DNA of 64,000 nt. Origin: a virus. Where the stretch lies: the IMG/VR virus record IMGVR_UViG_3300010883_000011, positions 21,773 to 85,772 of that record; one strand, written 5' to 3'. Position numbers and translations under genes: made by a program. The notes under the pieces are model-generated. The model searched no databases, was not told the DNA's origin, and saw nothing but the letters and a program-made list of their open reading frames with translations. Positions within the stretch are counted from its first letter, which is position 1; every line of letters starts with the position of its first letter. Positions 39,331 through 62,273 of the stretch are shown one piece after another.

Positions 39331-39360
39331 CACCGCGAAACGAGTCCCAGGAGGACCTAA

Positions 39361-40864: not shown

Positions 40865-40888
40865 CCCCTACGCCACACTGGAGAACTT

Positions 40889-49018: not shown

Positions 49019-49116
49019 GGGGGGAGAGGGGGGTGCAAGATATGGTGCGCCTGCCTACTCGACATGGCACCTGATTCCGCTATTATCAAGGTGACGTGTC
49101 TGCGCGGGAGAGCATT

Positions 49117-49422
49117 ATGTCGTTCGAATTTACGGCTGCCCACCTCGGCAAACTTGCCTCTTGGGGTCTTCCTATGGTCTTTGTCGCGGGTGGTCTTTAC
49201 ATCACTCTTGAGGCACTCGCCCATGACGTTGACAAGATCTCGGCACGCCAGGAAACGCATTTAGATCTGGAGGGGCACCCGGTATCACAGGTGCGAATCG
49301 AAGACTTGTCGACTCAACAGACAGACCTGATGCTTGAACAACGAGGAATGCGGGAAGATCTCGCAGAGCAGGCGGTGAACATTGCTGCCATTTGTCAAGC
49401 AACGGGAGCAAGCTGCCGTTGA
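49117..49422 (+). CDS. N-terminal TM plus coiled-coil protein
   Basis: WGLPMVFVAGGLYI then heptads. Confidence 0.55.
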   Translation: MSFEFTAAHLGKLASWGLPMVFVAGGLYITLEALAHDVDKISARQETHLDLEGHPVSQVRIEDLSTQQTDLMLEQRGMREDLAEQAVNIAAICQATGASCR

Positions 49423-49442
49423 GCAGGGAGGGGGGGGGATCT

Positions 49443-49796
49443 ATGGGCGATGGGTACATAGATCAACTGTTAGACTTGGGTGCGCTCGGGCTCTTTGCTA
49501 CGTTTCTGATTTGGCAGTTTATCAAGATGCAAGACCGTCTTGATAAGTTAGTCCAAGACTTCCAAGAGCAGATCCGTGAGATCGACTCGACGTATGAACG
49601 CCGCGTAGAGACTATGCGTGAGCGATACGACATTGTCATTCAGAAGTACGACGGTGAGAGGCGGCTGCTGTCTGAACGTCTTGGGCATTCGGTAGAAGAT
49701 AGCCATGATAAATTGGATCGAGCGTTAGCTAAACTGGACGAAGGCTTACGCGAGATGCGTGCCCACTATAGACGGGGGGAGGGGGTAGACAAATGA
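49443..49796 (+). CDS. N-terminal TM plus coiled-coil protein (BhlA/holin-like topology)
   Basis: LGALGLFATFLIWQF then charged helix. Confidence 0.55.
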   Translation: MGDGYIDQLLDLGALGLFATFLIWQFIKMQDRLDKLVQDFQEQIREIDSTYERRVETMRERYDIVIQKYDGERRLLSERLGHSVEDSHDKLDRALAKLDEGLREMRAHYRRGEGVDK

Positions 49797-50041
49797 AAAC
49801 GGATCCGAAGACTATATTGATCGGTGCGTTTCTGTTGGCTGCAACCGGGGCGGGGGGGTCCATGATCGGACTCACAGTGGAGCCACAGGAAACCACTGAA
49901 ATGCGTGTTAGCAACGCTATGCTTGAAACACGGAACGAGTCTCTACAAGAACAGGTTGACAGGTTGGAGGCTCGCGTAGATGTCCTGGACGGAATCGTGA
50001 AGGAATGCCAGTCAATCATCATGGCGAACCAGTCGCCGTAG
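49793..50041 (+). CDS. Membrane-anchored coiled-coil protein
   Basis: Hydrophobic N-terminus, heptad repeat. Confidence 0.55.
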   Translation: MKTDPKTILIGAFLLAATGAGGSMIGLTVEPQETTEMRVSNAMLETRNESLQEQVDRLEARVDVLDGIVKECQSIIMANQSP

Positions 50042-50049
50042 GAGAAACA

Positions 50050-50319
50050 ATGAAACGATTTACGGTTGCGTGTTTGCTTATTTGCGCGTTTGCGTATGGC
50101 CACATCGGGGGGGAGGGGGTAGCGGAGGCACAAGAGCCGTCCCTCCGAGAGCAGCTACAGGCGTGCCAGGATGAACTGCGTACCGCGAGGTCTGCGATTG
50201 AACGCATCGAGAACCCGGACGTGTTGATTCAAGCGGAGCGTATTCAGAACCTGGAACAGATGATTCAGGACGCTTATGCGACGCCGCCCGAGACACCCCC
50301 ACCCTCTTCTGACGATTAG
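50050..50319 (+). CDS. Secreted or anchored coiled-coil protein
   Basis: GGAG SD, MKRFTVACLLICAFAYG signal. Confidence 0.55.
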   Translation: MKRFTVACLLICAFAYGHIGGEGVAEAQEPSLREQLQACQDELRTARSAIERIENPDVLIQAERIQNLEQMIQDAYATPPETPPPSSDD

Positions 50320-50438
50320 AAACAGCGGCTACAAAAGGCATACCCAGGGGGGAGGGGTATGCAGATGGTCGTCCACCTCGCCGTCCGCTATAACGGTGGT
50401 GAGGGCTCCTCAATCGTTGTGCCCCCGGAGGGCTACCC

Positions 50439-50918
50439 GTGTCCGATACCCCCACCCCCCTTCCGCACTCTGGAAACGCATCCCAAAAAAACGAAGGGGG
50501 GGGGAGGGGGGGGCACGCCCTGGACGCCACCCTCACGTCCTCCCGTGTGTGTGGTTCGTGTACGGCATGTTGCACGGTGCTGAAAGTCGACGAGATTGCC
50601 AAGGAAGAATACCAGCCGTGCGTTCACCTCAAGGCCGATTGTACCGGTTGCTCGATCTATGGTACGCGGTACGAGATATGCCGTGTGTATAAGTGCGCTT
50701 GGTTGCTCGGTGCCTGGGAAGAATCCGACCGACCGGACAAGCGAGGCGTTCTCACGCAAGAGCAGGTCGTGAACGGTGAGTGGACTGGTGCCATCGAATT
50801 CGTAGAAGTTGTCCACGGCAAGCTGGCGTCACCAGCGGTTCGAGCCATGATCGATGCGGTGAGCGGGAGCGGCTACAAGGCTATTCTAAAGGCTCGACGC
50901 TTCGTCAGCCGGGACTGA
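50439..50918 (+). CDS. YkgJ/CxxCxxCC cysteine-cluster protein
   Basis: CGSCTACC...C.HL....C.IY..R...CR.Y.C.W; start uncertain. Confidence 0.75.
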   Translation: MSDTPTPLPHSGNASQKNEGGGRGGHALDATLTSSRVCGSCTACCTVLKVDEIAKEEYQPCVHLKADCTGCSIYGTRYEICRVYKCAWLLGAWEESDRPDKRGVLTQEQVVNGEWTGAIEFVEVVHGKLASPAVRAMIDAVSGSGYKAILKARRFVSRD

Positions 50919-51705
50919 CACCGGATTCCAGGCCGCAGGGGCTTGTGGCGGCACCCAGGGGGTTTGCATCGGGTGTTCTTGGGAATCATGCCACGCCTTT
51001 CGCCGGGGGAATCCAAATCTCGTTCGTCCCGGAAACGCTTGTGCCGGGGTGCCTCGGGGCGGTTTCCGAATCTCGTTCGTGCGCGATCCGAATCTCGTTC
51101 GGAAAACGCTCGATTGAATTTCCTTGCGATGAAGACCACTTTTGATTCCCAGGGAAATGCGCCAGAAGTGAGAGCGAGCGAGCGTCGCGCATTCTTTGAG
51201 CGGTTGCGTCGTCTTCTTGAGCCAGCGCGTTTTCTTCGTTTGCGAAGCGCACTCTGGCCGAAACGCTCGATTGAATTTTGCTGGGTTCACTACCGGTTTT
51301 GCCCCGGGGGGGAAATGCGTTTCACTACCGGGTTTTTTCCTCTCGAATCGTTCGAGCGCAGCGGTCGCCGTGTCAAGAGCGCGTATCAGAAAGTTGCACA
51401 TCGCTCGCACCTCTCGACGCTTTCGAAGGGGCGTCTCGCCGTGTCAAGGGCGCACAAAACGCTCGAAAGCGGATGAGGGTGGATGGCGACCCGTCAAGAC
51501 CCGCGAGCGACTCCCATTTTCCGAGCGCATTGGCAAGGACTTTTCTGCGCCGCGCTTGCTTTTTTACAATCCGTCCACCTCGCCGAATCAGCAGCTACGA
51601 GCCGCGAGGCGACTCCCATTTCCGACGCGCATTGGCAAGGACTATTCTGCGCGAATCGAATCTTTTACATCTGGTAAAAAACCCAAGGCATCCCTCCCTA
51701 CGGGT

Positions 51706-51735
51706 ATTATAACACGCTCAGTGTTAGAAAGGCAA
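51706..51735 (-). promoter_or_regulatory. Leftward promoter R1 with TAAC-N9-GTTA
   Basis: Minus strand TTGCCT-18-TATAAT. Confidence 0.65.
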
Positions 51736-51894
51736 GCGGCGCTCAAAAAGAAAAGCGATTTATTTTGCCGTCCACCTCGCAGAATCAGCAGCTACGAGAG
51801 CCGCGGCGACTCCCATTTTCCATGCGCGTTGGCAAGGATTTTTCTGCGCGATTCGATCTTTTTACATCTGGCCGAAATCGCAAAGCGTCACCAG

Positions 51895-51924
51895 ACGATA
51901 ACATGCCTCCGGTTAGAAAGTCAA
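51895..51924 (-). promoter_or_regulatory. Leftward promoter R2 with TAAC-N9-GTTA
   Basis: Minus strand TTGACT-18-TATCGT. Confidence 0.55.
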
Positions 51925-52091
51925 TCGCTGATTGAAAATAAAAGCGATTTCTTTTCCCGTCCACCTCGCAGAATCCGGTTAGCAGCTCCCTTCGGGTCGA
52001 CGCGAATCAGCAGCTCCGAAATCGCGCCAAGCGACCAGAATCGCAGGACAAAGGGGGACGCAGAAAAAAGATCTTTTCTTTTCGAAAAGGG

Positions 52092-52119
52092 TAGACACTA
52101 ACCCTGTCTGTGTTATTAT
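52092..52119 (+). promoter_or_regulatory. Cassette promoter P2
   Basis: TAGACA-16-TATTAT with TAAC(52099)-N9-GTTA. Confidence 0.75.
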
Positions 52120-52125
52120 GTATAC

Positions 52126-52509
52126 ATGGAAGCAAGGAACACCAACCGAATCGAAGCCGCAAACACCGCAACCGCAGTGCTTTGCTACCGCCCCGAAAAC
52201 AAGAACTTTGACGCGGACAACATTATCTCCGTGGCAATCGAAGTCAGTTCTGATTGGAGCCTCTCCGAAATCCTCGCCACTGCAATCGCAAACGTCGCAG
52301 TCCCGAAGGGCTCGGCTCGCAGCGGTGTCTTCCAGGTTCAGACCGTCGAAGGCATTTTCGCACATGTCAACGAGCGAAAGATTGACCTCTCGTCCGACCG
52401 CAAGGCAGCGAAGGTTCTGTTTGCATCTTGGGCCGCCATGGCCGCTTTCGAAAACGCCAACCCCCTCTCCGAAGTCGACGCTTTCGATGCAGTCGCAAAG
52501 GCTCTCTAA
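52126..52509 (+). CDS. Hypothetical early protein, possibly leaderless
   Basis: ATG 7 nt after the -10 hexamer, no SD. Confidence 0.6.
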   Translation: MEARNTNRIEAANTATAVLCYRPENKNFDADNIISVAIEVSSDWSLSEILATAIANVAVPKGSARSGVFQVQTVEGIFAHVNERKIDLSSDRKAAKVLFASWAAMAAFENANPLSEVDAFDAVAKAL

Positions 52510-52510
52510 A

Positions 52511-52690
52511 ATGGCCGACCGAATCCATCCCGCAGTCATCGAGCAAGCCCGACGCGACCGCGAGGCCGACCGCTTCGAACGCAGTCAAATCCCGCTGCAC
52601 CGCCCGCCGCCACCGCCGCCCGCTTTTGACCCGAAGCCGCAGTCCGAAAATCGGCAGCGCGGATCGGTCATCGTTGACCTTTCAATCTAA
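52511..52690 (+). CDS. 59-aa Pro-rich protein ending RGSVIVDLSI
   Basis: ATG immediately after the previous stop. Confidence 0.55.
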   Translation: MADRIHPAVIEQARRDREADRFERSQIPLHRPPPPPPAFDPKPQSENRQRGSVIVDLSI

Positions 52691-52710
52691 CCCCAACACC
52701 AAGGCATCCC

Positions 52711-52866
52711 ATGCACCCCAACACGCACAACCGCTCTTCCAGAATCGAAGATCTGCTGCTCGACGAAGTCAACTCCCCGCTCTACCTCGGCTTCTTCAGC
52801 GCACTCACAATCGCGTATCTCGGCGGCTGGGGCTCGGTGCTGTTGCAGGTCATCGCGCTCGCGTAA
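52711..52866 (+). CDS. 51-aa membrane peptide (not in ORF track)
   Basis: CCAACACCAAGG leader; ...LYLGFFSALTIAYLGGWGSVLLQVIALA. Confidence 0.55.
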   Translation: MHPNTHNRSSRIEDLLLDEVNSPLYLGFFSALTIAYLGGWGSVLLQVIALA

Positions 52867-52950
52867 GCGAAAATCCAAGATTTACTCCAAGCCCCTGGGC
52901 ATGGGCTTCAACCAAACTGCCCGCCCCACCAACACCAAAAGGTGACTCCC

Positions 52951-53157
52951 ATGGTTTTGATTCGAAATCAAGTAGAATTTGCGATGCACGCAAAAGTCCA
53001 CGTTGAAGCATTCAACGCGGGTCGCACCGACGCCACGCGCTTTGTCGAAGCCGTCGCTGGTGACTGCGCCGCGCTTGTCGCGTTTCAGAATTTGTCCGAG
53101 CCTGACAAGCTCGCGCTGAATACGCTTTTCGGCGGTCCGCCGATTCTGCTGAAGTAG
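52951..53157 (+). CDS. Small hypothetical protein
   Basis: CAACACCAAAAGGTG leader. Confidence 0.55.
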   Translation: MVLIRNQVEFAMHAKVHVEAFNAGRTDATRFVEAVAGDCAALVAFQNLSEPDKLALNTLFGGPPILLK

Positions 53158-53185
53158 AGTCGCGCATCGCTCGACCGCCACCGCA

Positions 53186-53215
53186 CCCCGCGCAAGCGGG
53201 GCTGCTCGCGTTTTT
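53186..53215 (+). terminator. Hairpin terminator-like element
   Basis: CCCCGC-GCAA-GCGGGG followed by a downstream T-run. Confidence 0.5.
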
Positions 53216-53318
53216 GCGGGTCGCGTTTGGCGGCGTCCACCTCGCAGCAGCCCGGCAAAATCCGTCCACCTCGCCACGCCATCCGAGCGGGACCATGGCG
53301 GGCGCAAGGCGTCACCAG

Positions 53319-53439
53319 ATGATAACACGCCCGCTGTTAGAAAGTCAATCCCCCAAAAAGATAAAAAGCGATTTCTTTTGCGACCGGCTTTGGAGCAAGG
53401 CGTCACCCTACGATAACACGCCCGCCGTTAGAAAGTCAA
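53319..53439 (-). promoter_or_regulatory. Tandem leftward promoters R3 and R4
   Basis: TTGACT-18-TATCAT and TTGACT-18-TATCGT on the minus strand, each with TAAC-N9-GTTA (53323, 53414). Confidence 0.6.
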
Positions 53440-53627
53440 TCCCGGATTGAAAAGAAAAGAGATTTCTTTTTCGCTTGACACGCGACGCGCCGCCCCGAAT
53501 CAGCAGCTACAAATCGGCCCGTCCACCTCGCCGCCCTAACATAGAACGCGTTAGCGGTCAAGGATTATTCTGCTCTTTAGCAGCTCCAGGGCTGAAAAAG
53601 AAAAATGCATTATTCGCAAAATAAGTG

Positions 53628-53655
53628 GAGACTCTAACCTTCGTTGGGTTATAAT
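53628..53655 (+). promoter_or_regulatory. Cassette promoter P3
   Basis: GAGACT-16-TATAAT with TAAC(53635)-N9-GTTA; upstream A-tracts. Confidence 0.8.
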
Positions 53656-53716
53656 GTATGTACTGAAGGGGGAGACAGAAACCCTCCAAAGTACCAACCC
53701 CAACAAGGACAATCAA

Positions 53717-54112
53717 ATGTATTCCGAAATGAACCGCAGCGACCTCCGCACCGCCCTCGCAGCCGCAGGCATCGAAGGCGTCAACCGCAACAGCAAGGCC
53801 GCCATGGCCGATGCACTGACCGCCCACGACGCTGCCACCGCGAAGCCGGCTCGCTCGCCTCGCATGACCCGCGCTGACATGGCGCAGGTGCTGAAGGGCT
53901 TTATCGGCCGCAAAAAGTCCGTTGTCGTGGAAATCGCCGAAGTCGCCGCTGCTGGCATCTGTCGCTCCGGTACCCTCTACCACGAATATTGGAGTTCCTC
54001 CGACAACACCGGATTCAAGGCCGCTGCGCTGATTGGCTGTACCGCGACCCGCGTTGTCAAGAATCCCGCCACTGGCGAAGCGGGGGTTTGCCTCGTTCTG
54101 ACCCGCTCGTAG
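53717..54112 (+). CDS. Hypothetical early protein (N-terminal SAP/Rho-N-like helices possible)
   Basis: CAACAAGGA SD; YSEM.RSDLR..L...GI.G..RNSKA.M...L. Confidence 0.6.
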   Translation: MYSEMNRSDLRTALAAAGIEGVNRNSKAAMADALTAHDAATAKPARSPRMTRADMAQVLKGFIGRKKSVVVEIAEVAAAGICRSGTLYHEYWSSSDNTGFKAAALIGCTATRVVKNPATGEAGVCLVLTRS

Positions 54113-54236
54113 CGAATCGGGTTCCGGGCGGTCCCGTCAAAACCGCCCCGCTTCCAAGTAGCATCGCATCGGGCGGTGCTACCCGGAAGCGGCCAAATCG
54201 GTCGCTTTACCCCAACACTCCAACAAGGCAAAAATC

Positions 54237-54305
54237 ATGTTCGCGCTTATCCTGGTCCCCTACGTTTCTTTGGCAATCTTTGCGGCATCGCTCGCCACCG
54301 CGTAA
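54237..54305 (+). CDS. 22-aa hydrophobic peptide (not in ORF track)
   Basis: CCAACAAGG leader; MFALILVPYVSLAIFAASLATA. Confidence 0.5.
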   Translation: MFALILVPYVSLAIFAASLATA

Positions 54306-54420
54306 GCGGCAATCCCAAATCCCGCGCCTCGGCTTCGTCCGGGGCGCGGCTCGTTTTGCCTTCGCACTTCGGGTCCGTCCACCTCGCACGCCGACCCGCG
54401 ACCCGTCCACCTCGCAGGCC

Positions 54421-54503
54421 GAATCAGCAGCTACAAATCGGCCCGGAAAAAGATTGCGCTTTCGCAAAATAAGTGGAGACTCTAACGCAGTCTGTGTTAC
54501 TAT
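54421..54503 (+). promoter_or_regulatory. Cassette promoter P4
   Basis: GAATCAGCAGCTAC...GAGACT-16-TACTAT with TAAC(54483)-N9-GTTA. Confidence 0.8.
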
Positions 54504-54528
54504 GTAGATACCAACAAGGGAGTTCAAC

Positions 54529-54777
54529 ATGGCAAACGCACTCAACATCGCACAGGTCTTTCAGGCCGCGTTCGGCGACGACAACACCGCACCCGGTTTC
54601 TTCTACCGCGTCGGCGACGCAGCGGGTCTGTCGAGCCGCCAAATGATGTCTTTCGGTCGCTGGTCCGTCGACACCGAATGCGGCGCGGCTTGCGAAATCG
54701 CAATCCACGAAGCCGTCGCCGATGGCCGCAACGCCTTCGACGCCATGACCGCAATCGCCACGCTGGTTCTCGGATAA
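54529..54777 (+). CDS. Small hypothetical early protein
   Basis: AAGGGAG SD after P4. Confidence 0.65.
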   Translation: MANALNIAQVFQAAFGDDNTAPGFFYRVGDAAGLSSRQMMSFGRWSVDTECGAACEIAIHEAVADGRNAFDAMTAIATLVLG

Positions 54778-54803
54778 TCTAAACCAACAACAAGGGGCAA
54801 ACC

Positions 54804-55004
54804 ATGTCAAACACGCACCATTTGATTCTGACCTATACCGATCCAGATACGGGCGTCGAAGTCCGGCTTGGCTTTGATGATGGCGACCCGCGCCGGGTCC
54901 ACTGCATTAACAGCGACCGCACCGAAGCCTTTTCAGCGTCGCTTGACGAGGCACTCGATTCGCTGCTGGCTCGATGGCCGGACCTGAAATACGCAATCGA
55001 TTGA
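54804..55004 (+). CDS. Small hypothetical early protein
   Basis: CAACAAGGGG leader. Confidence 0.6.
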   Translation: MSNTHHLILTYTDPDTGVEVRLGFDDGDPRRVHCINSDRTEAFSASLDEALDSLLARWPDLKYAID

Positions 55005-55168
55005 GTCGCACTTCAGGGCTGCTCGACCCGCTCGCGCTTCGGCTCGGGCGGCTTCGGGCGTTTTTGCCTCGCGCATCGAGCCCGTCCACCTCGCACGGCC
55101 CCGCCAAAATCCGTCCACCTCGCGTTTGCGATTGCGGCCGATCTGGTTTTTTCGCAAGGCGTCACCTT

Positions 55169-55291
55169 ATCATAACATGCCTCCGGTTAGATAGCTCCGC
55201 CTGAATCAAAAGAATCAGCAGCTACCTCGTGCGAAAAAGATCGCACTTTTCGCAAAATAAGTAGAGATTCTAACGCACACGGTGTTATAAT
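55169..55291. promoter_or_regulatory. Divergent pair R6 (leftward) and P5 (rightward)
   Basis: TAAC-N9-GTTA at 55173 and 55271; -10 TATGAT (minus) and TATAAT (plus); AATCAGCAGCTAC between them. Confidence 0.7.
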
Positions 55292-55317
55292 GTATGTATA
55301 CCAACAAGGAGAACCAG

Positions 55318-55506
55318 ATGACCAACCGCAACATCGAAATCCCGACCGACGTTCAGAACGACAACACCGTGCAGGATGCAGCGTGGCGACTGCGCCAAGC
55401 CATCGACTCCCACGGCGAAGGTCACCCGATTGTGGTCAAGCGCGAAGCCCAGCTACAAAGCTGGATTGACCATTCCAGGGCCGCTACAATCTTTCGAAAT
55501 AGTTAG
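55318..55506 (+). CDS. Small hypothetical early protein
   Basis: AAGGAG SD; stop codon lies inside the next promoter module. Confidence 0.6.
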   Translation: MTNRNIEIPTDVQNDNTVQDAAWRLRQAIDSHGEGHPIVVKREAQLQSWIDHSRAATIFRNS

Positions 55507-55533
55507 AGACTCTAACGCAGACTGTGTTACTAT
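55506..55533 (+). promoter_or_regulatory. Cassette promoter P6, near-identical to P4
   Basis: GAGACTCTAACGCAG(A/T)CTGTGTTACTATGTAGATACCAACAAGGGAG shared with P4, one mismatch. Confidence 0.8.
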
Positions 55534-55558
55534 GTAGATACCAACAAGGGAGAGCGCA

Positions 55559-55876
55559 ATGACCACTCACTTTCACTCTTACGAAGCCAACGAGCGGCAC
55601 GAAGCCGCCATGCTGATCTGTGCCCCGACGGGGCAAAACAACGCTGCCCGCGCATTGGTCGGTCGAGCCATCCGCAAGGCGCTCGGTGTCAAGCGTTGGA
55701 ACGAAGGCATCCACTTCGTCGACTACCTGCCTGCCGGGTACGGCTACCCCGACGCCGACGCGCGATTCATGGTCAACGTCACCGACGCCGAAATGACGCG
55801 ACTCATGACCACGCTGACCGCGATGGCCGAAGCCGAGGGCTGGGACCGCCCGCCATGCGACGCATATCACGACTGA
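55559..55876 (+). CDS. Hypothetical early protein
   Basis: AAGGGAG SD after P6. Confidence 0.65.
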   Translation: MTTHFHSYEANERHEAAMLICAPTGQNNAARALVGRAIRKALGVKRWNEGIHFVDYLPAGYGYPDADARFMVNVTDAEMTRLMTTLTAMAEAEGWDRPPCDAYHD

Positions 55877-55957
55877 TTCTGGTCGGTCCACCTCGCAGGG
55901 CGCGTTGGCAGCGCCTGCGAGGCGCAAAATAAAAATGCACTTTTCTCAAAATAAAGG

Positions 55958-55985
55958 GAGACTCTAACGCACATGCGGTTATAAT
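55958..55985 (+). promoter_or_regulatory. Cassette promoter P7
   Basis: GAGACT-16-TATAAT with TAAC(55965)-N9-GTTA. Confidence 0.8.
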
Positions 55986-56011
55986 GTATGTACCAACAAG
56001 GAGAACACAAC

Positions 56012-56257
56012 ATGGCAAACCGCAACCCCAACCGCCTCTTCCTCATCGTTCACCCCGAAGTCGACCCGCAGGCTCCAGGCAGCGAGGGTATGTCAGCAGC
56101 GTTCGAACGCAACAGCGACGGCGAAATCCTCCGCACCCGCAACATTGAAACCGCCCGCAAGTGGCGCGACCGCCGCAACGAAGGCGTGGACCTCGGCGAG
56201 CCCCTTTTCTTCATCCTCGCAATCACCGCCGATGGCAGTCAGCAGCGAGCCGCGTAA
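56012..56257 (+). CDS. Small hypothetical early protein
   Basis: AAGGAG SD after P7. Confidence 0.65.
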   Translation: MANRNPNRLFLIVHPEVDPQAPGSEGMSAAFERNSDGEILRTRNIETARKWRDRRNEGVDLGEPLFFILAITADGSQQRAA

Positions 56258-56328
56258 GCGACGCACCGGCCCCGTCCACCTCGGGCGGGGTCACCCCAAC
56301 ACCAACCCCAACAGCAAAAGGCAACACC

Positions 56329-56604
56329 ATGCGAATCACATCGACCGGACCCCGAATCGTCCGCACCCCGTTTCAGCGGGCCAATATGCCCTACCTTCTG
56401 GTCATCGATTCCGAAGGCTTTGTGCGATATCGCATTGACAAAGCCGCAAACGGCCTCGCCGCCAAAGCCCCGTTCCGAATCTACCGCACCGATGCTTCGG
56501 GTAGGTACCACGGGCGGGCACTCACTCTCGTTGGATACGCAAAGGGCATTGCCGATGCTCGGCGACAGGCAGAGGCACTTCCGCTGGATAGCCTCGGCCG
56601 ATAG
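56329..56604 (+). CDS. Small basic hypothetical protein
   Basis: CAA-rich leader with AAGG. Confidence 0.6.
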   Translation: MRITSTGPRIVRTPFQRANMPYLLVIDSEGFVRYRIDKAANGLAAKAPFRIYRTDASGRYHGRALTLVGYAKGIADARRQAEALPLDSLGR

Positions 56605-56748
56605 CGACGCACCCAAGCTGCTGACCCCGCTCGATTCAATCGGGCGGGGCTTCGGTGGTTTTGTCCACCTCGCGGACCCGGCGCAGAATCCGTCCACCTC
56701 GCAGAACCGCGTGCGAGCCGCTGCTCGTTTTTCGAGAACCGTCACCCT

Positions 56749-56906
56749 ATCATAACATGCCCCGTGTTAGAAATCTCCACCGAAAGCACGAAAAGTTTTG
56801 GCGTCCACCTCGCCCCAGATGGCGCGTTTCAGCAGCTACAGGCCGCAAAAGAAAAATGCACTTTTCGCCAAATAAGTAGAGACTATAACCGACCCTGGGT
56901 TATAAT
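56749..56906. promoter_or_regulatory. Divergent pair R7 (leftward) and P8 (rightward)
   Basis: TAAC-N9-GTTA at 56753 and 56886; CAGCAGCTAC between them; TATAAT at 56901. Confidence 0.7.
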
Positions 56907-56936
56907 ACATGTATACCAACCAACAAGGGAGTTCAC

Positions 56937-57377
56937 ATGGCAAAGGCAAACGAAAACAACCGGGGCAATAACAGGAACGGAAGCAACTGGATCCGCAAGG
57001 ACCTGCGCTTGGCCATCTACCTGCGGGACAACATGACCTGCGTGTTCTGTAAGACCCACGCCGACAACACGACGCTGACGCTTGACCACGTCGTGTCCCG
57101 CTCCGAGGGCGGGTCCAATGGGACCCCGAATCTGGTGACCGCGTGTCGCTCGTGCAACAGCAGCCGCCAAGACATGCCCATTGCCGACTTCGCAGCCCGC
57201 TTCGACGGCGCAGCCCAACGGGTCGCCACCGCAATCAGCACGACGCGGATCGAAATGGTTGACTACCGCAACACCGCGAAGGGCATGTACGCCGACCCCG
57301 CAGAGAAGGCCAAGATCGACGCGATGCGAGCACGGGCTTCCTGTTCCTGGAAGTCCGAGCACGCGTGGCGCAAGTAG
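56937..57377 (+). CDS. HNH endonuclease
   Basis: R.AIY.RD...CVFC, LDHV..RS.GGSN...NLVTAC..CN. Confidence 0.92.
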   Translation: MAKANENNRGNNRNGSNWIRKDLRLAIYLRDNMTCVFCKTHADNTTLTLDHVVSRSEGGSNGTPNLVTACRSCNSSRQDMPIADFAARFDGAAQRVATAISTTRIEMVDYRNTAKGMYADPAEKAKIDAMRARASCSWKSEHAWRK

Positions 57378-57450
57378 CAGCGGCCTCGCGGCTCGGTCCA
57401 CCTCGCGGGCCGAGCCGCAAAATCAATCTACACTTTTCGCCAAATAAGTA

Positions 57451-57478
57451 GAGACTATAACCTGCCCTGGGTTATAAT
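57451..57478 (+). promoter_or_regulatory. Cassette promoter P9, near-identical to P8
   Basis: CACTTTTCGCCAAATAAGTAGAGACTATAACC..CCCTGGGTTATAATACAT shared with P8. Confidence 0.8.
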
Positions 57479-57512
57479 ACATACAACACCAACCCCCAAC
57501 AAGGCGAACAAC

Positions 57513-57620
57513 ATGACCCCCTTCATCGCAATGACTTGGTACCTCGCAACTTGGACCATTGGCGCACTCAGCGGCGTCGCAATCTACGGTGCAGCCACCT
57601 CTCGCAGCGCACGTCGCTAA
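57513..57620 (+). CDS. 35-aa single-TM peptide (not in ORF track)
   Basis: CAACAAGG leader; MTPFIAMTWYLATWTIGALSGVAIYGAATSRSARR. Confidence 0.55.
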   Translation: MTPFIAMTWYLATWTIGALSGVAIYGAATSRSARR

Positions 57621-57631
57621 AGGCAATCCCC

Positions 57632-58060
57632 ATGGCAAAACGAATCCCCATCCCTTGCTCGTCGTGCGACCGCCAATGTCTCGGTCGACGCACGACCCGT
57701 GGCACCCCGCGAATCCTTCGCCTGTCCGAAGTCAGCCGTTCGGCCATCTCGTCCGAGCCTGTCTGCCTCAACTGCTCGTGGCAACACCAAGCCGCGATCC
57801 TCCGCTGCGATACCGTCGCCGACTTGGAAGCCCTCAAGGCCGACCCGTCCATAGCTGCTCGTTTTCTGATCGACTCCCTTCAGGGGGACGCCGACAGGCT
57901 TCGCCAAATCGAAGGCCGGCTTGCTGCCGAGGTCTATGCGAGCAGGCACGAGCACGCCAGGGCAGTGGCACAGGCGAGCGACGAGCCACTGCTGCCACAA
58001 ATCCCCGTGCCATGCGAGCATTGCCTCTATGTCGAATGCGCCTGCAACGTCGCCGATTGA
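57632..58060 (+). CDS. Cys-rich hypothetical protein
   Basis: CSSC, CLNC, CEHC...CAC. Confidence 0.6.
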   Translation: MAKRIPIPCSSCDRQCLGRRTTRGTPRILRLSEVSRSAISSEPVCLNCSWQHQAAILRCDTVADLEALKADPSIAARFLIDSLQGDADRLRQIEGRLAAEVYASRHEHARAVAQASDEPLLPQIPVPCEHCLYVECACNVAD

Positions 58061-58066
58061 CTCGCG

Positions 58067-58716
58067 TGCTCAATAGTTGAACACGGCCCCGCGACTCTCT
58101 ATCAGGGTAGCGGGGCCGCTCTTCGTTTGACCCACGCATCGGTCCACCTCGCCCACGCAGATTGACCACGCACCACGGACCAAACAATTTCGGGCGTTTA
58201 GCGGAGACATGGGGGCTGAATAGTGGTAGGGGGACAGTCCCGAGGTCCGATGGACCGCCCCAGAAAACAGCGAACCCGCGCACGAGCAAGGGCGTCGCTG
58301 CTGGTAGTGAGTGGGTCTGCGCGTGTTCAATAGTTGAACAGGCCGCGCATGGGGCATGGGGCACGCGAAAACTTTTGGCGCACTTCGTTTGTGCCTCGCG
58401 CTTGGCCCGTTGCGTCGCTGTCCACCTCGCCATGGCTTGGGCGTCGACTGTCCACCTCGCTGCGAAGGTTCGAAGCGTCCACCTCGTTTGGTCCACCTCG
58501 CAGATTTCTGGCGTCGAGCGACGCTCAATACGCGGTCGAGCCGGGGCGCATGGGGCGTCGCACTTCGTTGCGCTGCTGCATGGGCGGTGCGTCGCATTGA
58601 ATGGGCATGGGGGCGCGGGCAGTCCCCAAAAGGAAACGCGGTGCATGGGGTGCGAGCGTGTTGCTCGATTTGTAGCTGCTGATTGATTGTCGTCGAGCCT
58701 GCTCAATAGTTGAACA
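58067..58716. repeat. Palindrome TG(C/T)TCAA-TAG-TTGAACA, three copies
   Basis: 58067-58083, 58324-58340 (perfect) and 58700-58716. Confidence 0.85.
58084..58128 (+). terminator. Hairpin closing the cassette array
   Basis: CGGCCCCGC...GCGGGGCCG stem followed by CTCTTCGTTT. Confidence 0.55.
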
Positions 58717-59278
58717 CGCACCAGCATGGCCCATGGGTCTTGGCGTCGCGCTTCGCTGTGCCCTGGGCTGGCTGGGCCGCTGTCCACCTCGCAGCCTTGT
58801 CCACCTCGCCGCTTCGCTCGCCGCTGCGCGACGCACACCGCTCGCTCGTGCGCTCTTGACACGTCGCCTTTCACGCCACAAAGTCCAGTCAAGATTTTCG
58901 GACAGTGCGTCGTTCATTTATGCCCAACGCTCTTCAGCGCAAAAGTGTATCGCTTTCTTGCACACGCAATTTTGCCGTGCTTCGTGCGACGCACCGACGC
59001 AATTTGTCACAACGCTTTGCAACCGCGCTCCTTTTGACCCAACTTTGTGCGCCGCTTTCTAAGTGCCTGCTATCACTCACCTTTTTCGGCGCTCTCTTCG
59101 CAAGTGCGTCGCACCCCCACCGCACCAAGTTTTCGCGCTCTTCGTTTATTACCTGTAGGAGTCCTCTCGCGCAGTGCCTCACCAAAATACCGACTTGGAT
59201 TTTTTGTAAAAAACGCGGGGGTGCGCGAGTATCTGCGTGGGGTGTGAGTGGGTTATGATGCTGGAGGAGGAAAACCCT

Positions 59279-59644
59279 ATGCCAGACCGAGAAGTTCAGG
59301 AAGAAGTCGACGATAGGCTGAACATGCGCGTAAACAACAACCCCTTGCAGGCAGCGGGTCGTGATGAGTTGATGCGTGAGGCTGAATTCGGTGGTCCTGC
59401 GTCGAGCCGGGACTCCAGGTTCTACTTCGACCGCAAGGAGTTGGAGCAGTTGCTTGAGATTTGCAAGTCTTCGGTGTCTGGTCGGGTGATTATCCACCAT
59501 GCCGGTGTGAAGGTGCGTCTCTACCGTTCCGGCTCGGGCCACATGTACGAGGCGTGGCACCTGATTGGTTCGAAGGCGGTGCCGGAGGCGAAAGAGAACC
59601 CCACGATAAGCCTTCCTGACCTACTCAACGTCAAGGTGCCGTAG
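59279..59644 (+). CDS. Hypothetical protein upstream of the terminase
   Basis: GGAGGAGG SD; operonic with terL. Confidence 0.6.
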   Translation: MPDREVQEEVDDRLNMRVNNNPLQAAGRDELMREAEFGGPASSRDSRFYFDRKELEQLLEICKSSVSGRVIIHHAGVKVRLYRSGSGHMYEAWHLIGSKAVPEAKENPTISLPDLLNVKVP

Positions 59645-59645
59645 C

Positions 59646-61352
59646 GTGCCTGGAGGTTCTGAGAACTACCACTACCTGATGGCACAGGTATCGCACGACT
59701 ATCCCCTGCTGGGGTTGGCCTTACAGCGTCATGTGAACACGCGTGGTCTTCCCTTGTCCTTTGAACACATGCCGTACCTCATTGAGTTGTATACGGACTT
59801 CCCCAAGATCGATGGAGCCGACATCTGCAAGGCTGTGCAGACTGGTCTATCGGAACTGATGATTCAGTTGATTCTGGAGCGAGCCGGTTGGCAGGGTCGC
59901 GTGACCGCGTATGTGCTCCCTACCTTCACGATCCGAGACAGGTTCGTACAGAACCGCATCAACCCCCTACTGAACATCGTGCCTGACTACCGTATGAGAG
60001 CGGGACTGACAGCGGGTCGTCAGGGAAGTACCGGTAACCTGAAGCTGAAGAGATTTGGTAATGGTGCGATGATGTTCTTGGGTTCCAACACTGTGGGTGA
60101 CTTTGTAGAGTTCTCTGCTGATGTTTTGATTATTGATGAGTTTGACCAGTGCGACCCGCAGAATCTCGCCAAGGCACGAGACAGGTTGCGTGCTTCGCCG
60201 TACCCTCAACTCTTTCGGTTGGGGAACCCTACCCTCCCCCGTGTGGGTGTCTCGCGGTTGTTTGACCTGTCTGACAGCCGTAGGTGGTTCCATCGTTGTA
60301 GCAAGTGCAAGGAACGTCAGCCCATCGACTGGTTTGAGAGTGTTGTGGAGCGTGACGATGATGGTGCGTGGGTGCCCCGCGATAAGGCGAGGCTAAACCC
60401 TGCGTCGGGGGACATCAGGCCAATGTGTCGGCGATGCAAGGAACCCTTCGAAAGAACCGCCAAGGACGCGGTGTGGGTAGCTGAACACCCGGACAGGGAA
60501 CGCCGTGGCTACCTGATTAGCCGCTTGGACGTATTGTCTGAATCCTATCGCCATCTTTTCGCGGAATGGAAAAACGCACAGGGAACGTCGGAGTTGCTGT
60601 CTGCTTTCTACTGTTCCGTGTTGGGCAAGCCCTTTGAGTTCTCCGGGGCACGCTTGAACGTCGAGCATCTACAGGACGTGGCTACTGGTGAGGTGGTGGA
60701 CTACGCAGGGGGCGAGGAGTACCGCAACCACATTGTCACGATGGGAGTTGACGTAGGGGCGCTACTACACGTCCACATAAGCGTTGTAGAGGAGATGGAG
60801 AACACGACACCGATTCAGACACTGGACGGGGAGCTTCCCCCTGAACCGAAGACCATGCGCCATTGTGTATTCACTGGCACGGTGAGGACTTTCGGGGAGG
60901 TGGCCGACATGATGCGCCGGTACCATGTTGACGTGTGCGTGATCGACTCTATGCCCGAGACTCGTAAGGCCCAAGAGCTACGCGATGAGTTTTACGGTGG
61001 TGACTCCCAGGTGTGGCTCTGTAGGTTCCATCCGACCGCGAGAGTGGCCCGCCAGGAGTACGGCTTGAAGATGAACTACCGCGACAACACGGTCATCGTG
61101 GATCGCACGCAAGTCTTCGACGCCACCTTTGACGACATCAGGCAACGTCGACGAAAGTTTCCCGAAGACGTGTTCACCGTGTTGGGATGGTCAGAACAGA
61201 TGCGGTCATCTGTGCGGGTGTTGGATGAACAGAAGCAACGGATCGTTTGGAGCGAGGGTGGGTCTGCTGATCACTTCAGGCTGTCGGACATCTACGACCG
61301 GATCGCCCACGACATCACGCAGAAGGGTGGTTCCTACTATGCAGGGCAGTGA
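59646..61352 (+). CDS. terL: Terminase large subunit (lambda GpA-like)
   Basis: KAVQTGLSE Walker A-like, IIDEFD Walker B, GNPT, CSKC/CRRC zinc motif, MGVDVG and DH nuclease residues. Confidence 0.88.
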   Translation: MPGGSENYHYLMAQVSHDYPLLGLALQRHVNTRGLPLSFEHMPYLIELYTDFPKIDGADICKAVQTGLSELMIQLILERAGWQGRVTAYVLPTFTIRDRFVQNRINPLLNIVPDYRMRAGLTAGRQGSTGNLKLKRFGNGAMMFLGSNTVGDFVEFSADVLIIDEFDQCDPQNLAKARDRLRASPYPQLFRLGNPTLPRVGVSRLFDLSDSRRWFHRCSKCKERQPIDWFESVVERDDDGAWVPRDKARLNPASGDIRPMCRRCKEPFERTAKDAVWVAEHPDRERRGYLISRLDVLSESYRHLFAEWKNAQGTSELLSAFYCSVLGKPFEFSGARLNVEHLQDVATGEVVDYAGGEEYRNHIVTMGVDVGALLHVHISVVEEMENTTPIQTLDGELPPEPKTMRHCVFTGTVRTFGEVADMMRRYHVDVCVIDSMPETRKAQELRDEFYGGDSQVWLCRFHPTARVARQEYGLKMNYRDNTVIVDRTQVFDATFDDIRQRRRKFPEDVFTVLGWSEQMRSSVRVLDEQKQRIVWSEGGSADHFRLSDIYDRIAHDITQKGGSYYAGQ

Positions 61353-61355: not shown

Positions 61356-62273
61356 ATGAAAGAGAAGCTTGGCGTACTGACCTGTTTCCACTTCTACAAG
61401 AACACCACACTCAAAGAGGTGTTGCACGACACCATGCCCGGTCTGCCCATCTTGATTGATAGCGGTGGCTTTTCAGCGTTTTCGCAGGGCGCTGTGATCG
61501 ATCTCGATGAGTATGGGCGGTGGTCCCGTCGTAACCGCACTCCAGACACAAACTGTATCAGCCTTGATGTAATAGGCAGCGCGGGAAAATCATCGATCAA
61601 CATTTCGCGCCTGAAACCCTATGGTGACTACATGCCATGCGTTCACGTTGGCTCATCGCCCGATTGGATTGATCGTTACCATGATCGGGGCTTTCGCTAC
61701 ATGTGCCTGGGCGGGATGGTTCCTTTCCTCAAGGGTGGTCAGACCAAATCGAAAGAGGCGACAGGCCGGTTGATGAAATTCATCCATGCGTGCCACGACC
61801 GGGCAGACGCGTTGGGTGTCGACCTGCACGGCCTGGGTTGCACTACCTGGGACATCGTGCGGAAGTTTCCCTGGAGGTCGGTGGATTCATCCTTCCAGAA
61901 CATGGGTGTGCGTTTTGGTTACCCGGTTCGCGTCTATGACCACGCTACGCGGAAGTGGCACTACATTGGACTCCGTGACCCGAAGTCTGTCCTGCCCGCT
62001 ATGGGCCTCATTCGTGAGTACGGGTACAACCCATTCCCCTTGCTGCACGACTCGCCACACACCAACGAGACGGTGCTTGGGTTGTCCGTGGCATCGGTCG
62101 AGCGGTGGCAGAAAGATCAACGACGAGCCCCCTTCGTATATTTTGCCGATGGAAACAAAGACCATGTTCGCGCCATCGCTCGGATGATCTACACCGAGAA
62201 ACCAGCGACTATGGACTGGCGCTATGACGACTGGTACGGGAACAACGACCAACAGCCCACTGGTGCGGTGTAG
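61356..62273 (+). CDS. TGT-fold DpdA-like protein 2
   Basis: DSGGFS, SLDVIG, MPCVH, CLGGMVP, HGLG, SVDSS; clear paralog of 41760-42698. Confidence 0.75.
   Translation: MKEKLGVLTCFHFYKNTTLKEVLHDTMPGLPILIDSGGFSAFSQGAVIDLDEYGRWSRRNRTPDTNCISLDVIGSAGKSSINISRLKPYGDYMPCVHVGSSPDWIDRYHDRGFRYMCLGGMVPFLKGGQTKSKEATGRLMKFIHACHDRADALGVDLHGLGCTTWDIVRKFPWRSVDSSFQNMGVRFGYPVRVYDHATRKWHYIGLRDPKSVLPAMGLIREYGYNPFPLLHDSPHTNETVLGLSVASVERWQKDQRRAPFVYFADGNKDHVRAIARMIYTEKPATMDWRYDDWYGNNDQQPTGAV

Follow-up and report, generated by a model that had tools for sequence, protein, structure and literature searches.

A cassette array upstream of the packaging genes

The DNA described here belongs to an uncultured marine phage, available as an IMG/VR record of 85,772 bp (an 85.8-kb genome) whose contig ends represent an assembly break inside a G/T-rich repeat. 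The window that we analysed is a stretch of 64,000 nucleotides (bases 21773-85772 of the record), and positions are those of the window unless given as genome positions. A 7-kb part of it is an array of self-contained cassettes, each with an upstream A-rich element, a sigma70-type promoter, a strong ribosome site, one to four genes and a terminator. The cassettes appear to carry early genes, and none of their proteins found a family in Pfam or PHROG, except for that of the HNH gene. A further word, named S, has its core about 38-41 nt before the -35 box at four promoters.

Rightward sigma70-type promoters of the CTAAC family (+ strand, nine in all)
48100-48128: first of the nine
52092-52119
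53626-53655
54475-54503
55262-55291
55505-55533: internal, without M before it
55957-55985
56877-56906: promoter of the HNH gene
57449-57478: promoter of the last cassette

Gene-less leftward promoters of the CTAAC family (- strand)
51706-51735
51895-51924
53319-53348: would transcribe the complement of pair 53235/53264
53410-53439
55169-55198: would transcribe the complement of pair 55084/55113
56749-56778: would transcribe the complement of pair 56663/56692

Intrinsic terminators (+ strand, hairpin and T-run)
53183-53216: precedes pair 53235/53264
54322-54357: precedes pair 54377/54405
55026-55065: precedes pair 55084/55113
56626-56662: abuts M at 56663
58084-58127: hairpin and T-rich tail closing the last cassette

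Other features
54421-54434, +: S word, GAATCAGCAGCTAC
near 48066, 51585, 51782, 52004, 53497, 55212 and 56829: starts of further S copies
about 58672-58690: reversed S copy
56937-57377, +: HNH endonuclease gene, inside the array
58064-58092, 58321-58349 and 58697-58725: near-palindrome CTCAATAGTTGAACAC, copies 1 to 3, in the gene-free DNA that holds seven M copies
59279-59644, +: candidate small-terminase gene (121 aa), named by its position directly before terL
59646-61352, +: large terminase gene (terL)

An exact word on one strand

The repeated element, here called M, is the 11-mer (cc)GTCCACCTCGC, counted in the window as the 10-mer GTCCACCTCG. Exact matches to the latter number 25 on the + strand and 0 on the - strand, against 0.22 expected, and none of 100 shuffles of the window gave as many as 25. 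These counts agree with the first-pass annotation, which had described 23 copies in about 7.2 kb, all on the + strand, and two others at 45111 and 50371; the 23 lie within 51573-58808. Equal numbers on both strands had been named there as the outcome that would speak against a polar motif, and the scan of the window gave 25 versus 0. It had also noticed no reverse copy, which is true of the window; the whole record contains one, outside the window, at genome positions 12785-12794.

M copies (+ strand)
45111-45120: within the endolysin gene (44446-45288)
50371-50380: 8 nt past the hairpin closing the 48.1-50.3 kb operon
51573-51582: S word 2 nt later
51770-51779: followed by S; adjoins the upstream A-rich element of leftward promoter 51706-51735
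51959-51968: adjoins the upstream A-rich element of leftward promoter 51895-51924
53235-53244: pair member 1; terminator T-run 19 nt before
53264-53273: pair member 2 (29 bp); 40 nt downstream of the start region of leftward promoter 53319-53348
53521-53530: 10 nt past an S word; upstream of rightward promoter 53626-53655
54377-54386: pair member 1; terminator T-run 19 nt before
54405-54414: pair member 2 (28 bp); S 6 nt later
55084-55093: pair member 1; terminator T-run 18 nt before
55113-55122: pair member 2 (29 bp); 41 nt downstream of leftward promoter 55169-55198
55886-55895: 9 nt past the stop codon of gene 55559-55876; 3' half in a hairpin
56274-56283: 16 nt past the stop of gene 56012-56257; in a hairpin loop; next start codon 45 nt on
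56663-56672: pair member 1; abuts the terminator T-run (0 nt)
56692-56701: pair member 2 (29 bp); 42 nt downstream of leftward promoter 56749-56778
56803-56812: S 16 nt later; upstream of the HNH gene promoter
57396-57405: 18 nt past the HNH gene stop; inside a hairpin with a 12-bp stem
58142-58151: 14 nt past the T-rich tail of the last cassette's terminator
58420-58429: gene-free DNA
58450-58459: gene-free DNA, 30 bp after the preceding copy
58477-58486: gene-free DNA, 27 bp after the preceding copy
58491-58500: gene-free DNA, 14 bp after the preceding copy
58782-58791: gene-free DNA
58799-58808: gene-free DNA, 17 bp after the preceding copy; candidate small-terminase gene 470 nt on

The five pairs singled out earlier have exactly the start-to-start distances given for them (29, 28, 29, 29 and 30 bp), and three more close spacings had gone unnamed, of 27 bp (58450 to 58477), 14 bp (58477 to 58491) and 17 bp (58782 to 58799). 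As for the placement of M outside called genes, it holds for all credible genes in 51.5-58.8 kb, where only two weak, probably spurious ORFs overlap M copies, and fails for the copy at 45111, which is inside the endolysin gene.

M has ten invariant positions and a near-fixed eleventh, as GTCCACCTCG is followed by C in 21 of the 23 array copies, and its edges are sharp: positions -2 and -1 are C-rich, while the flanks beyond them have background composition. No copy with one mismatch was found inside the array. Taken together, the ten invariant positions, the background flanks and the lack of degenerate array copies argue for selection acting on M itself and not for a duplicated segment. A variant one letter off M, GTCCACCCCG(C), has five + strand copies at genome positions 3606-9226, amid genes of the - strand, and one - strand copy.

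M marks the ends of transcription units

At every 3' border of a transcription unit between 50.3 and 58.1 kb, M is the first conserved element, present in one or two copies. It follows the terminator T-run by 19, 19, 18 and 0 nt (14 nt at 58142) and, in units devoid of a terminator, the stop codon by 9, 16 and 18 nt. M stands anywhere from 45 to about 125 nt before the next -35 box, while S keeps its offset at four promoters, and thus M belongs to the end of a unit rather than to a promoter. In the leftward arm, a CTAAC-family promoter that drives a leftward gene forms an inverted module together with an A-rich element, an S-like word and the lone reverse copy of M (genome 12785-12794). With this copy included, all 26 copies of M point the way of the protein-coding transcription around them. 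Close copies start 14, 17 or 27-30 bp apart, without helical phasing, and the pair 54377/54405 has lost one member through a natural 28-bp deletion in a contig of run X4, so that M copies look like independent monomer sites.

The densest cluster, seven copies in 670 bp (58142-58808), separates the last cassette from the candidate small-terminase gene and terL; it shares with the three near-palindromes a stretch of 0.75 kb just upstream of the two genes. It is at this spot that early and late genes would have to be insulated from each other. The cumulative GC skew reaches its minimum at about 58-60 kb, and the skew reversal at 52-58 kb probably reflects the C-ending codon usage noticed by eye in the early genes.

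Near-identical strains keep M

Conservation in related phages had been proposed as a test of the motif, and the outcome is divided. Near-identical marine strains retain M, whereas relatives with 50-64% identical terL have neither M nor an equivalent word; with 38-49% GC, compared to 55% here, the latter are too distant to count as a refutation. In an independent metagenome contig all seven copies at 58142-58808 are kept and 6 SNPs fall elsewhere. None of the SNPs listed from four runs is inside an M copy, which is a test of little power.

A one-way roadblock as the best reading

The reading that we favour, while giving it somewhat less than an even chance, is that M is a docking site for a putative DNA-binding protein acting as a one-way transcription roadblock or insulator. 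Both the binding of a protein to M and the blocking of polymerase there are what we infer from the arrangement. The array cassettes would be driven by very strong host-type promoters, and a protein, phage-encoded or, less likely, host-derived, bound to M 14-19 bp past the U-tract would come up against the leading edge of RNA polymerase while the enzyme is at the release site. In terminator-less units the block would fall just past the stop codon. Bound M may thus stop read-through into the following cassette, and the seven-fold stack at 58.1-58.8 kb may stop it from entering the late packaging genes.

Several observations do not sit easily with a roadblock. The HNH protein alone among those of the array has a family, L5 gp71 has no homologue in the phage, and relatives have no equivalent of M. 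Perfect invariance of 11 bp over 25 copies is stricter than in most operator sets and is compatible with an enzyme site, a Chi-type site or base pairing as well, and a seven-copy stack with neither promoter nor gene equally suits a role related to genome ends or packaging. If the same factor reads GTCCACCCCG(C), five of the six variant copies are anti-oriented to the genes around them, and polarity would then be fixed by strand and not by transcription. Finally, in three units the M pair lies 40-42 nt downstream of a leftward promoter, although the intervening sequence differs, an offset which a simple insulator model leaves unexplained.

Chi-like sites and targets of a DNA enzyme

On the other hand, M might be a Chi-like site which switches a host nuclease of the RecBCD/AddAB type, loaded at a free DNA end beside the array, from degradation to recombination, protecting the first-entering or unpackaged end; we consider this unlikely. 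M is exact, sharply bounded, strictly polar and indifferent to helical phase in its spacing, and tandem copies would raise the chance of recognition. Its density peaks (7 in 670 bp) before the candidate small-terminase gene and terL, with the HNH gene just upstream, and Kala et al. 2014 are said to have found that in many cos phages HNH and small-terminase genes flank the genome ends. With an end near 58-59 kb, the nuclease would come upon M of the + strand from the 3' end of the word, the orientation in which E. coli Chi is active. However, eleven invariant positions are above any known Chi (to our knowledge, Chi sites have 5-8 nt and are all G-rich), and the strand recognised in that geometry would be C-rich. 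Moreover, the 18-19 nt terminator offset and the 40-42 nt leftward-promoter offset would be meaningless, and the reverse and variant copies are inconsistent with one end. Counts in five arbitrary bacterial genomes, none of them an identified host, revealed no Chi-like excess of M; the sole apparent excess was one giant repeat gene.

The remaining explanations are weaker than these two. M could, improbably, be the target of a strand-specific phage DNA enzyme, either a nickase leaving single-strand interruptions in virion DNA, which in T5, phiKMV-like and LUZ24-like phages are all in one strand, or a site-specific modification enzyme. Such sites are exact and sharply bounded, as is M, and the strand bias of 25:0, with variant copies also on the + strand whatever the gene direction, counts in their favour. 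The array contains an HNH endonuclease gene, and the phage has genes for DNA methylases and for QueC and QueD of a 7-deazaguanine precursor pathway. Yet known nick sites are scattered genome-wide, neither placed at cassette borders nor stacked in one spot, and small HNH proteins like this one usually go with terminase. The public runs were examined as assembled contigs, which cannot show nicks or molecule ends.

RNA elements, recombination joints and packaging sites

An RNA element had also been proposed. On the + strand this is unlikely, since most M copies lie between a terminator and the following promoter; the complement, CGAGGUGGAC, would be transcribed from three of the six strong leftward promoters that have no gene. 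There CGAGGUGGAC, which contains the Shine-Dalgarno-like GAGGUG and GGA motifs, would occur twice per putative short leftward RNA, starting 40-42 nt from a conserved GACGCC start region, and could titrate ribosomes or a CsrA-like protein or seed pairing with + transcripts that contain M. Base pairing would account for the invariance, and five copies (45111, 50371, 55886, 56274 and 57396) are predicted inside + transcripts, three of them in or next to hairpins. Nevertheless, the leftward RNAs have no terminator past the pair, the seven copies at 58.1-58.8 kb have no CTAAC-family promoter on either strand, no conserved secondary structure surrounds M, its mean unpaired probabilities are unremarkable and Rfam gave no match, all of which makes an RNA role a long shot.

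We give similarly little weight to M being mainly a recombination joint, a short direct repeat at borders through which cassettes are lost, gained or swapped. Promoter-terminator motifs (PeSLs) of T4-type phages have been proposed as such joints (PMC4122927), and the array is PeSL-like, with small early genes lacking known relatives, each between a repeated promoter and terminator, and M as a direct repeat at each border. The 28-bp deletion between the copies of one pair, the array of fused terminator-promoter repeats in the relative L045 and the breaks in many relatives' contigs 1.2-1.9 kb upstream of terL, which fit a hypervariable region, point the same way. But efficient homologous recombination needs more than an 11-bp repeat, and the much longer promoter repeats would be better suited to it; no recombinase is linked to M, and neither perfect invariance, strict polarity nor a cassette-less stack is demanded by recombination in itself. 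Recombination at M can coexist with a roadblock.

Least probable is that M is bound by the small terminase in packaging or by an initiator in replication, with the gene-free 58.1-59.25 kb as the centre: the cluster of M copies and near-palindromes and the skew minimum there suit it, but the skew reversal is probably a matter of codon usage, the 121-aa candidate found no family match, and the earlier packaging-protein proposal could cover at most the 7 copies by that gene, not the sixteen spread over 6.6 kb at cassette borders, far past any known pac, cos or origin region.

Comparison with known one-way sites

Stoperator-like sites, among the roles suggested in the first-pass annotation, fit the anatomy of M best (asymmetric, exact, intergenic, past unit ends, with an inverted copy in an inverted module), as a functional analogy only. 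Stoperators of the L5 type are asymmetric, intergenic, orientation-dependent and bound by a monomer (PMC9283540). M is likewise asymmetric and intergenic, but it is confined to one region, and the phage encodes nothing homologous to the L5 repressor (gp71); no integrase was found among the 60 proteins scanned. Comparable one-way words are known from other phages and are poorly understood; those of the lytic phages T1 and Stevie are asymmetric intergenic repeats oriented along transcription (PMC4319613).

A polar 11-mer is repeated in one presumed early region

The repeated word, hereafter M, is an 11-mer made of the invariant 10-mer GTCCACCTCG followed by C. An exact scan of the window gave 25 copies of GTCCACCTCG on the + strand and none on the - strand, with 0.22 expected from dinucleotide-preserving shuffles, and 23 of the copies fall within 51573-58808. 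The strictly polar, multi-copy character that the first-pass annotation had described was thus confirmed, and the five pair spacings that it had listed (29, 28, 29, 29 and 30 bp) proved to be exact. Over the whole record, 23 of the 26 exact copies are found in one 7.2-kb region, the remaining 3 being outliers. When the 23 copies were aligned, ten positions were invariant and the next one was C in 21/23; positions -2 and -1 favour C, and the composition further out is that of the background. One-mismatch copies do not occur inside the array. Such sharp-edged invariance amid diverged flanks shows that selection acts on the word itself. Moreover, the spacings between copies (14, 17 and 27-30 bp) follow no helical phasing and a natural single-copy variant of one pair exists, which suggests that the copies are independent monomer sites.

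We rejected M as a promoter, either for the phage ECF-like sigma factor or for host sigma70, because a -10-like element at a fixed distance is absent on both strands. We also rejected it as a DnaA box: in a comparison by eye the TCCAC core alone is in common, and the invariance of M extends well past this core.

Genome organization and gene content

The source record (85,772 bp, rated complete by CheckV) has both of its contig ends in one G/T-rich, GTCGT-punctuated repeat of about 900 nt, flanked by convergent gene blocks. As these ends overlap imperfectly, at about 90% identity with long G runs included, the genome is assembly-circular and cut within the repeat, and the contig ends are not physical ends. 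Tandem heptamer arrays were seen in relatives, at 75.3-75.7 kb in G007 and at 143-365 in L009. Genes at genome 357-12569 are directed leftward and nearly all others rightward.

Selected genome features
Genome 85170-85772 and 1-300 (window 63398-64000 and before the window): G/T-rich repeat array
Genome 3402-3911, - strand: ECF-like sigma factor, 169 aa (Sigma70_r2, E 3e-7; sigma70-ECF superfamily, E 6e-9)
40889-41632: QueC, clear match
43449-43865: QueD, clear match

Pfam and NCBIfam searches recognized virion and packaging proteins (portal, protease, major capsid, tape measure, large terminase), replication and recombination proteins (primase-helicase, helicase, PD-(D/E)XK nuclease, Sak4-like ATPase, RuvC-like protein), DNA-modification and regulatory proteins (QueC, QueD, two methylases, a ParB-N-like protein, the ECF-like sigma factor), and also MoxR, VWA proteins, an endolysin and an HNH endonuclease. 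The genes at 41760-42698 and 61356-62273 had no match in either collection, and no integrase or repressor family was present among the 60 proteins scanned with Pfam. A search for target promoters of the ECF-like sigma factor found none; the 108-aa protein encoded after its gene gives weak helix-turn-helix matches.

Megablast of the region against 50,697 phage records returned no match. The large terminase, major capsid and primase-helicase match cultured phages at less than 30% identity in all cases and thus offer no clue to the host. All related contigs and all runs holding the region are marine. In addition, we noted about seven G-runs of the GGGGGGAGGGGG type in 49020-50520; several of these, 8-10 nt 5' of start codons, might act as unusual ribosome-binding sites for small lysis-like genes with membrane or coiled-coil products. 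The GC skew at 52000-58000 is negative (+ strand C-rich) despite + strand genes, opposite to the rest of the genome; the early genes appear by eye to be rich in C-ending codons and score poorly under a codon model trained on long genes.

Architecture of the presumed early array

Nine promoters on the + strand between 48.1 and 58.1 kb form one family, each with an A-rich element upstream, CTAAC after the -35 box, and an extended -10 box of the GTTATAAT type. Behind each rightward promoter a short leader ending in ACCAACAAGGAG precedes one to four small genes, for which, apart from the HNH endonuclease, no Pfam or PHROG family was found, and several of the units are closed by hairpin-plus-T-run terminators. 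From this architecture we infer that the cassettes are of the early, host-takeover type. Six more strong promoters of the same family point leftward with no gene behind them, and in 5/6 of these the transcribed start GGTGACGC is conserved. As they fire against the 3' ends of upstream genes, their products may be antisense transcripts or short non-coding RNAs. The array also has a second word, S (GAATCAGCAGCTAC). In four early promoters the core of S precedes the -35 box by about 38-41 nt; with a genome-wide strand ratio of 12 to 3, its polarity is weaker than that of M.

Gene-less leftward promoters (sigma70-type) and S words of the array
51706-51735, - strand: leftward promoter
51895-51924, - strand: leftward promoter
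53319-53348, - strand: leftward promoter
53410-53439, - strand: leftward promoter
55169-55198, - strand: leftward promoter
56749-56778, - strand: leftward promoter
48066-48078: S word
51585-51598: S word
51782-51795: S word
52004-52017: S word
53497-53510: S word
54421-54434: S word
55212-55225: S word
56829-56839: S word

A GANTC site opens S, and a weak match points to a CcrM-related N6-adenine methylase domain among the phage proteins. The basic 131-aa early protein encoded at 53717-54112 is a candidate nucleic-acid binder on the strength of its N-terminus, which by eye, and without family-search support, resembles a SAP/helix-extension-helix motif of the Rho N-terminal type. Other candidate binders of M are a second basic early protein, encoded at 56329-56604, a Cys-rich one encoded at 57632-58060, and the 108-aa product of the gene beside the sigma factor.

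M follows the ends of transcription units

For every transcription unit that ends between 50.3 and 58.1 kb, M is the nearest conserved element downstream. It begins 19, 19, 18 or 0 nt after the end of a terminator T-run (14 nt at 58142) and, in units without a terminator, 9, 16 and 18 nt past the stop codon. The distance from M to the next -35 box is variable (45 to about 125 nt), and M is thus better assigned to the unit end and S to the promoter. Three units have a doubled M. Each of these pairs lies beyond a leftward promoter, and the nearer M, read as its complement, starts 40, 41 and 42 nt after a conserved GACGCC start region; the intervening sequence is unrelated.

The seven copies at 58142-58808 are found where there is no gene and no promoter of the array family. 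They interleave with three copies of a near-palindrome, CTCAATAGTTGAACAC, each of which is followed by at least one M within 60-100 nt and which could be an operator, an origin or a packaging element. This M-rich, gene-free DNA is directly upstream of a 121-aa gene, by position alone a candidate small terminase gene, and of terL.

Near-palindrome CTCAATAGTTGAACAC in the gene-free 1.2 kb ahead of the terminase genes
58064-58092: first copy
58321-58349: second copy
58697-58725: third copy

M lies mostly in gaps of the + strand that are predicted to be untranscribed, some copies are in promoter-free DNA, an Rfam scan of the region returned nothing, and folding of each copy gave no consistent fold around M. 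These four points argue that M is read on DNA, not as part of a + strand RNA. A tRNA scan of the region was likewise negative.

The reverse copy and a one-letter variant

The sole reverse M of the genome, at 12785-12794, belongs to an inverted module that drives the first leftward gene: 16 nt beyond M comes an S-like word, and then an A-rich element with a CTAAC-family promoter. Because of this inversion, all exact copies (26/26) point in the same direction as the surrounding protein-coding transcription.

The one-letter variant GTCCACCCCG(C) is found in the leftward-gene arm, with five + strand copies at genome 3606-9226 and one on the - strand. Three of the + copies are inside genes, in two different reading frames, and two are in hairpins between genes; 5/6 of the variant copies are anti-oriented to the surrounding genes. 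Since seven other, unrelated 10-mers also reach five scattered copies, the count of the variant is weak when taken alone; a tight cluster of the one-letter neighbour of M is unlikely to have arisen by chance. If one factor reads both M and the variant, polarity would be fixed to the strand and not to transcription.

Copies of the variant GTCCACCCCG(C) (genome coordinates)
3606, + strand: variant copy
5986, + strand: variant copy
7554, + strand: variant copy
8894, + strand: variant copy
9226, + strand: variant copy
10636-10627, - strand: variant copy

Conservation of M in close and distant relatives

Parts of the region were found in nineteen marine or seawater runs from 16 studies; no RNA run was among the public runs listed. 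Contigs from four runs are nearly identical to the window, and the SNPs listed for them include none in M copies, a test of little power. One low-depth contig from a seawater metagenome (run X4) lacks 28 bp at 54375, so that one copy of the 54377/54405 pair is lost; this deletion, between the two M copies of the pair, was the one rearrangement seen between close relatives. All seven copies of 58142-58808 are intact in an independent metagenome contig of 4.2 kb that differs by 6 SNPs; two of these SNPs are 5 and 10 nt upstream of an M copy.

In relatives whose terL is 50-64% identical (IMG/VR and JGI metagenomes; GC 38-49%) neither M nor a comparable dispersed polar word was found, the 76-kb record G007, read whole, included. 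Relatives this distant do not count towards the refutation, by lack of conservation in related phages, that the first-pass annotation had named. A terL search of the genome_contigs collection returned nothing. Closer relatives are evident from proteins 69-85% identical to the product of the gene at 56012-56257 (P0002-P0004), none of which is in IMG/VR. L045 (metagenome contig JAAHTH010000151.1), with a terL 58% identical, has a small-gene array of the PeSL type at 3300-6600. Each small gene there follows a 94-nt repeat in which a terminator hairpin (GGATCCCC/GGGGATCC) and a promoter are fused, and L045 has promoter-like tandem repeats of 48 nt on both strands as well. Its recurring GGGATC was considered as an equivalent of M and rejected, being a terminator palindrome present on both strands. 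The recurrent contig breaks upstream of terL cannot be taken as proven genome ends, since the point at which another related contig, L012, stops is internal in G007.

Searches with the pair pattern of M gave 17 matches in IMG/VR, all due to chance, in DNA coding for Glu-Val-Asp repeats on the other strand. The same pattern gave at least 120 matches in 185,579 genomes; titles among the matches listed are mostly of high-GC actinomycete, myxobacterial and similar genomes, and from these record titles we took the matches to be coding ones like those in IMG/VR.

Possible roles of M and comparison with known systems

The reading that we tentatively prefer is that M may be a docking site for a putative protein that blocks RNA polymerase in one orientation. 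In this scenario, a block 14-19 bp past the U-tract would keep the polymerase where the transcript is released; when E. coli RNA polymerase is roadblocked, it stalls about 14 bp before the site of the bound protein. The seven-fold stack of M would shield the late packaging genes from the genome's strongest promoters.

The closest functional parallel is with the stoperators of cluster A mycobacteriophages (L5 gp71, TipsytheTRex repressor), which are thought to halt elongating RNA polymerase in one orientation only and have a monomer reader (PMC9283540). Like them, M is an asymmetric word (about 11-14 bp in stoperators) whose many copies vary little within the genome, are for the most part intergenic, and follow the direction of transcription (PMC9283540). 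Of the four options raised in the first-pass annotation the stoperator-like one fits best, as a functional analogy only. Stoperators are spread over the whole genome, at promoters and in short intergenic gaps of both arms, whereas M is confined to one 7-kb early array plus 3 outliers, where it comes after terminators, often as a doublet, and forms a stack of 7 in gene-free DNA. Stoperator phages have a gp71-type immunity repressor (helix-turn-helix plus Stoperator domain), while tblastn of L5 gp71 against our whole genome gave no homologue (best E-value 0.47). They are also temperate, with an integrase and a silent prophage, and the M phage has no sign of lysogeny among the 60 proteins scanned; finally, their host is a mycobacterium and the host here presumably a marine bacterium with sigma70-type promoters.

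It is also conceivable, if somewhat unlikely, that M stands for an undescribed and widespread class of boundary sites that are fixed to one strand in the early-gene arrays of phages and are read on DNA by a dedicated protein or enzyme. Such a reader would couple three functions that are usually kept apart: the hold of the polymerase at cassette ends, the fate of the gene-less leftward RNAs and the marking of the first-entering genome end next to the packaging genes. The result would be a polar system of genome punctuation, with no homology to stoperators, Chi or nick systems.

Protection of a DNA end in the manner of Chi (E. coli GCTGGTGG and its equivalents in other bacteria) seems doubtful to us. 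M does resemble Chi in being exact, polar and non-palindromic, with an effect of tandem copies that would add up and depend on orientation to the DNA end, and it is densest next to a place that, judging by the HNH gene and the terminase genes nearby, could be a genome end. However, Chi is a G-rich word of the host genome, 5-8 nt long, whereas M has 11 conserved positions and is C-rich in the relevant orientation, and its positions are tied to transcription signals, offsets that would be meaningless for Chi. The geometry, in which the nuclease meets the 3' side of M, fits only with an end at 58.8-59.25 kb and reading of the C-rich strand. A Chi-style count in five arbitrary bacterial genomes was uninformative, with no meaningful excess. 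The 130:6 strand bias of the 10-mer in a Pseudomonadales MAG (OY843767.1) was rejected as a genome-wide signal, as it comes from a giant tandem-repeat gene and is a trap for counts of this kind.

Repeat blocks in MAG OY843767.1 (G001, contig C1; together more than 100 copies of the 10-mer on one strand, in steps of 360-400 bp)
24345-42506: first block
3769814-3817703: second block

A strand-specific enzyme site, for nicking or modification, would explain both the invariance of M and the variant copies on the + strand. The nick sites of T5, phiKMV-like and LUZ24-like phages are likewise short conserved consensus words limited to one strand. These known sites are not tied to cassette borders, whereas M, as far as sequence alone can tell, is; this link would be left without explanation, and we regard an enzyme site as improbable. 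There is similarly little chance that the complement of M acts in the leftward RNAs: its conserved 40-42 nt offset from the leftward start region and its Shine-Dalgarno-like GAGGUG and GGA motifs are in line with such a role, which would leave most copies of M unexplained.

A 28-bp deletion between paired copies hints that M could be a recombination joint of the kind formed by PeSLs, the composite early-promoter/terminator motifs of T4-type phages (PMC2839356, PMC4122927). We give this a low probability, and it would be compatible with the roadblock reading. The setting is alike, with small early genes without known relatives, repeated promoter and stem-loop flanks and a plastic region (PMC2839356, PMC4122927), but a PeSL is the promoter and terminator themselves, while M is a separate word between the two, has its own strict polarity and is also present where cassettes are absent. 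Packaging or origin sites are very improbable, and the initial proposal of packaging-protein sites cannot hold for the whole set, as only the terminal stack fits it.

A further parallel is found in the lytic-type phages T1 and Stevie, whose 22-bp repeat (16-20 copies) is asymmetric, mainly intergenic and oriented with transcription, and has a function left without explanation (PMC4319613). M shares with it the asymmetry, the mainly intergenic position and the single orientation relative to transcription, and no sequence similarity; the T1/Stevie repeat is a degenerate consensus along the genome, whereas M is an invariant 11-mer concentrated in one array (PMC4319613).

The early regions of lytic phages are home to most of their takeover genes without assigned role, and it is poorly understood how dozens of very strong, crowded promoter units avoid disturbing each other and the late genes. 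To our knowledge, the stoperators of temperate mycobacteriophages are the sole polar-repeat system of this sort understood so far, and the one-way intergenic repeats of T1, noted twenty years ago, still await an explanation. M offers an unusually clean case, with one invariant word, a natural copy-number variant and a grammar that can be read from its terminators, its promoters and the antisense promoters without genes. Should its reader turn out to be a compact polar roadblock, that reader would also be of use as an insulator in synthetic circuits.
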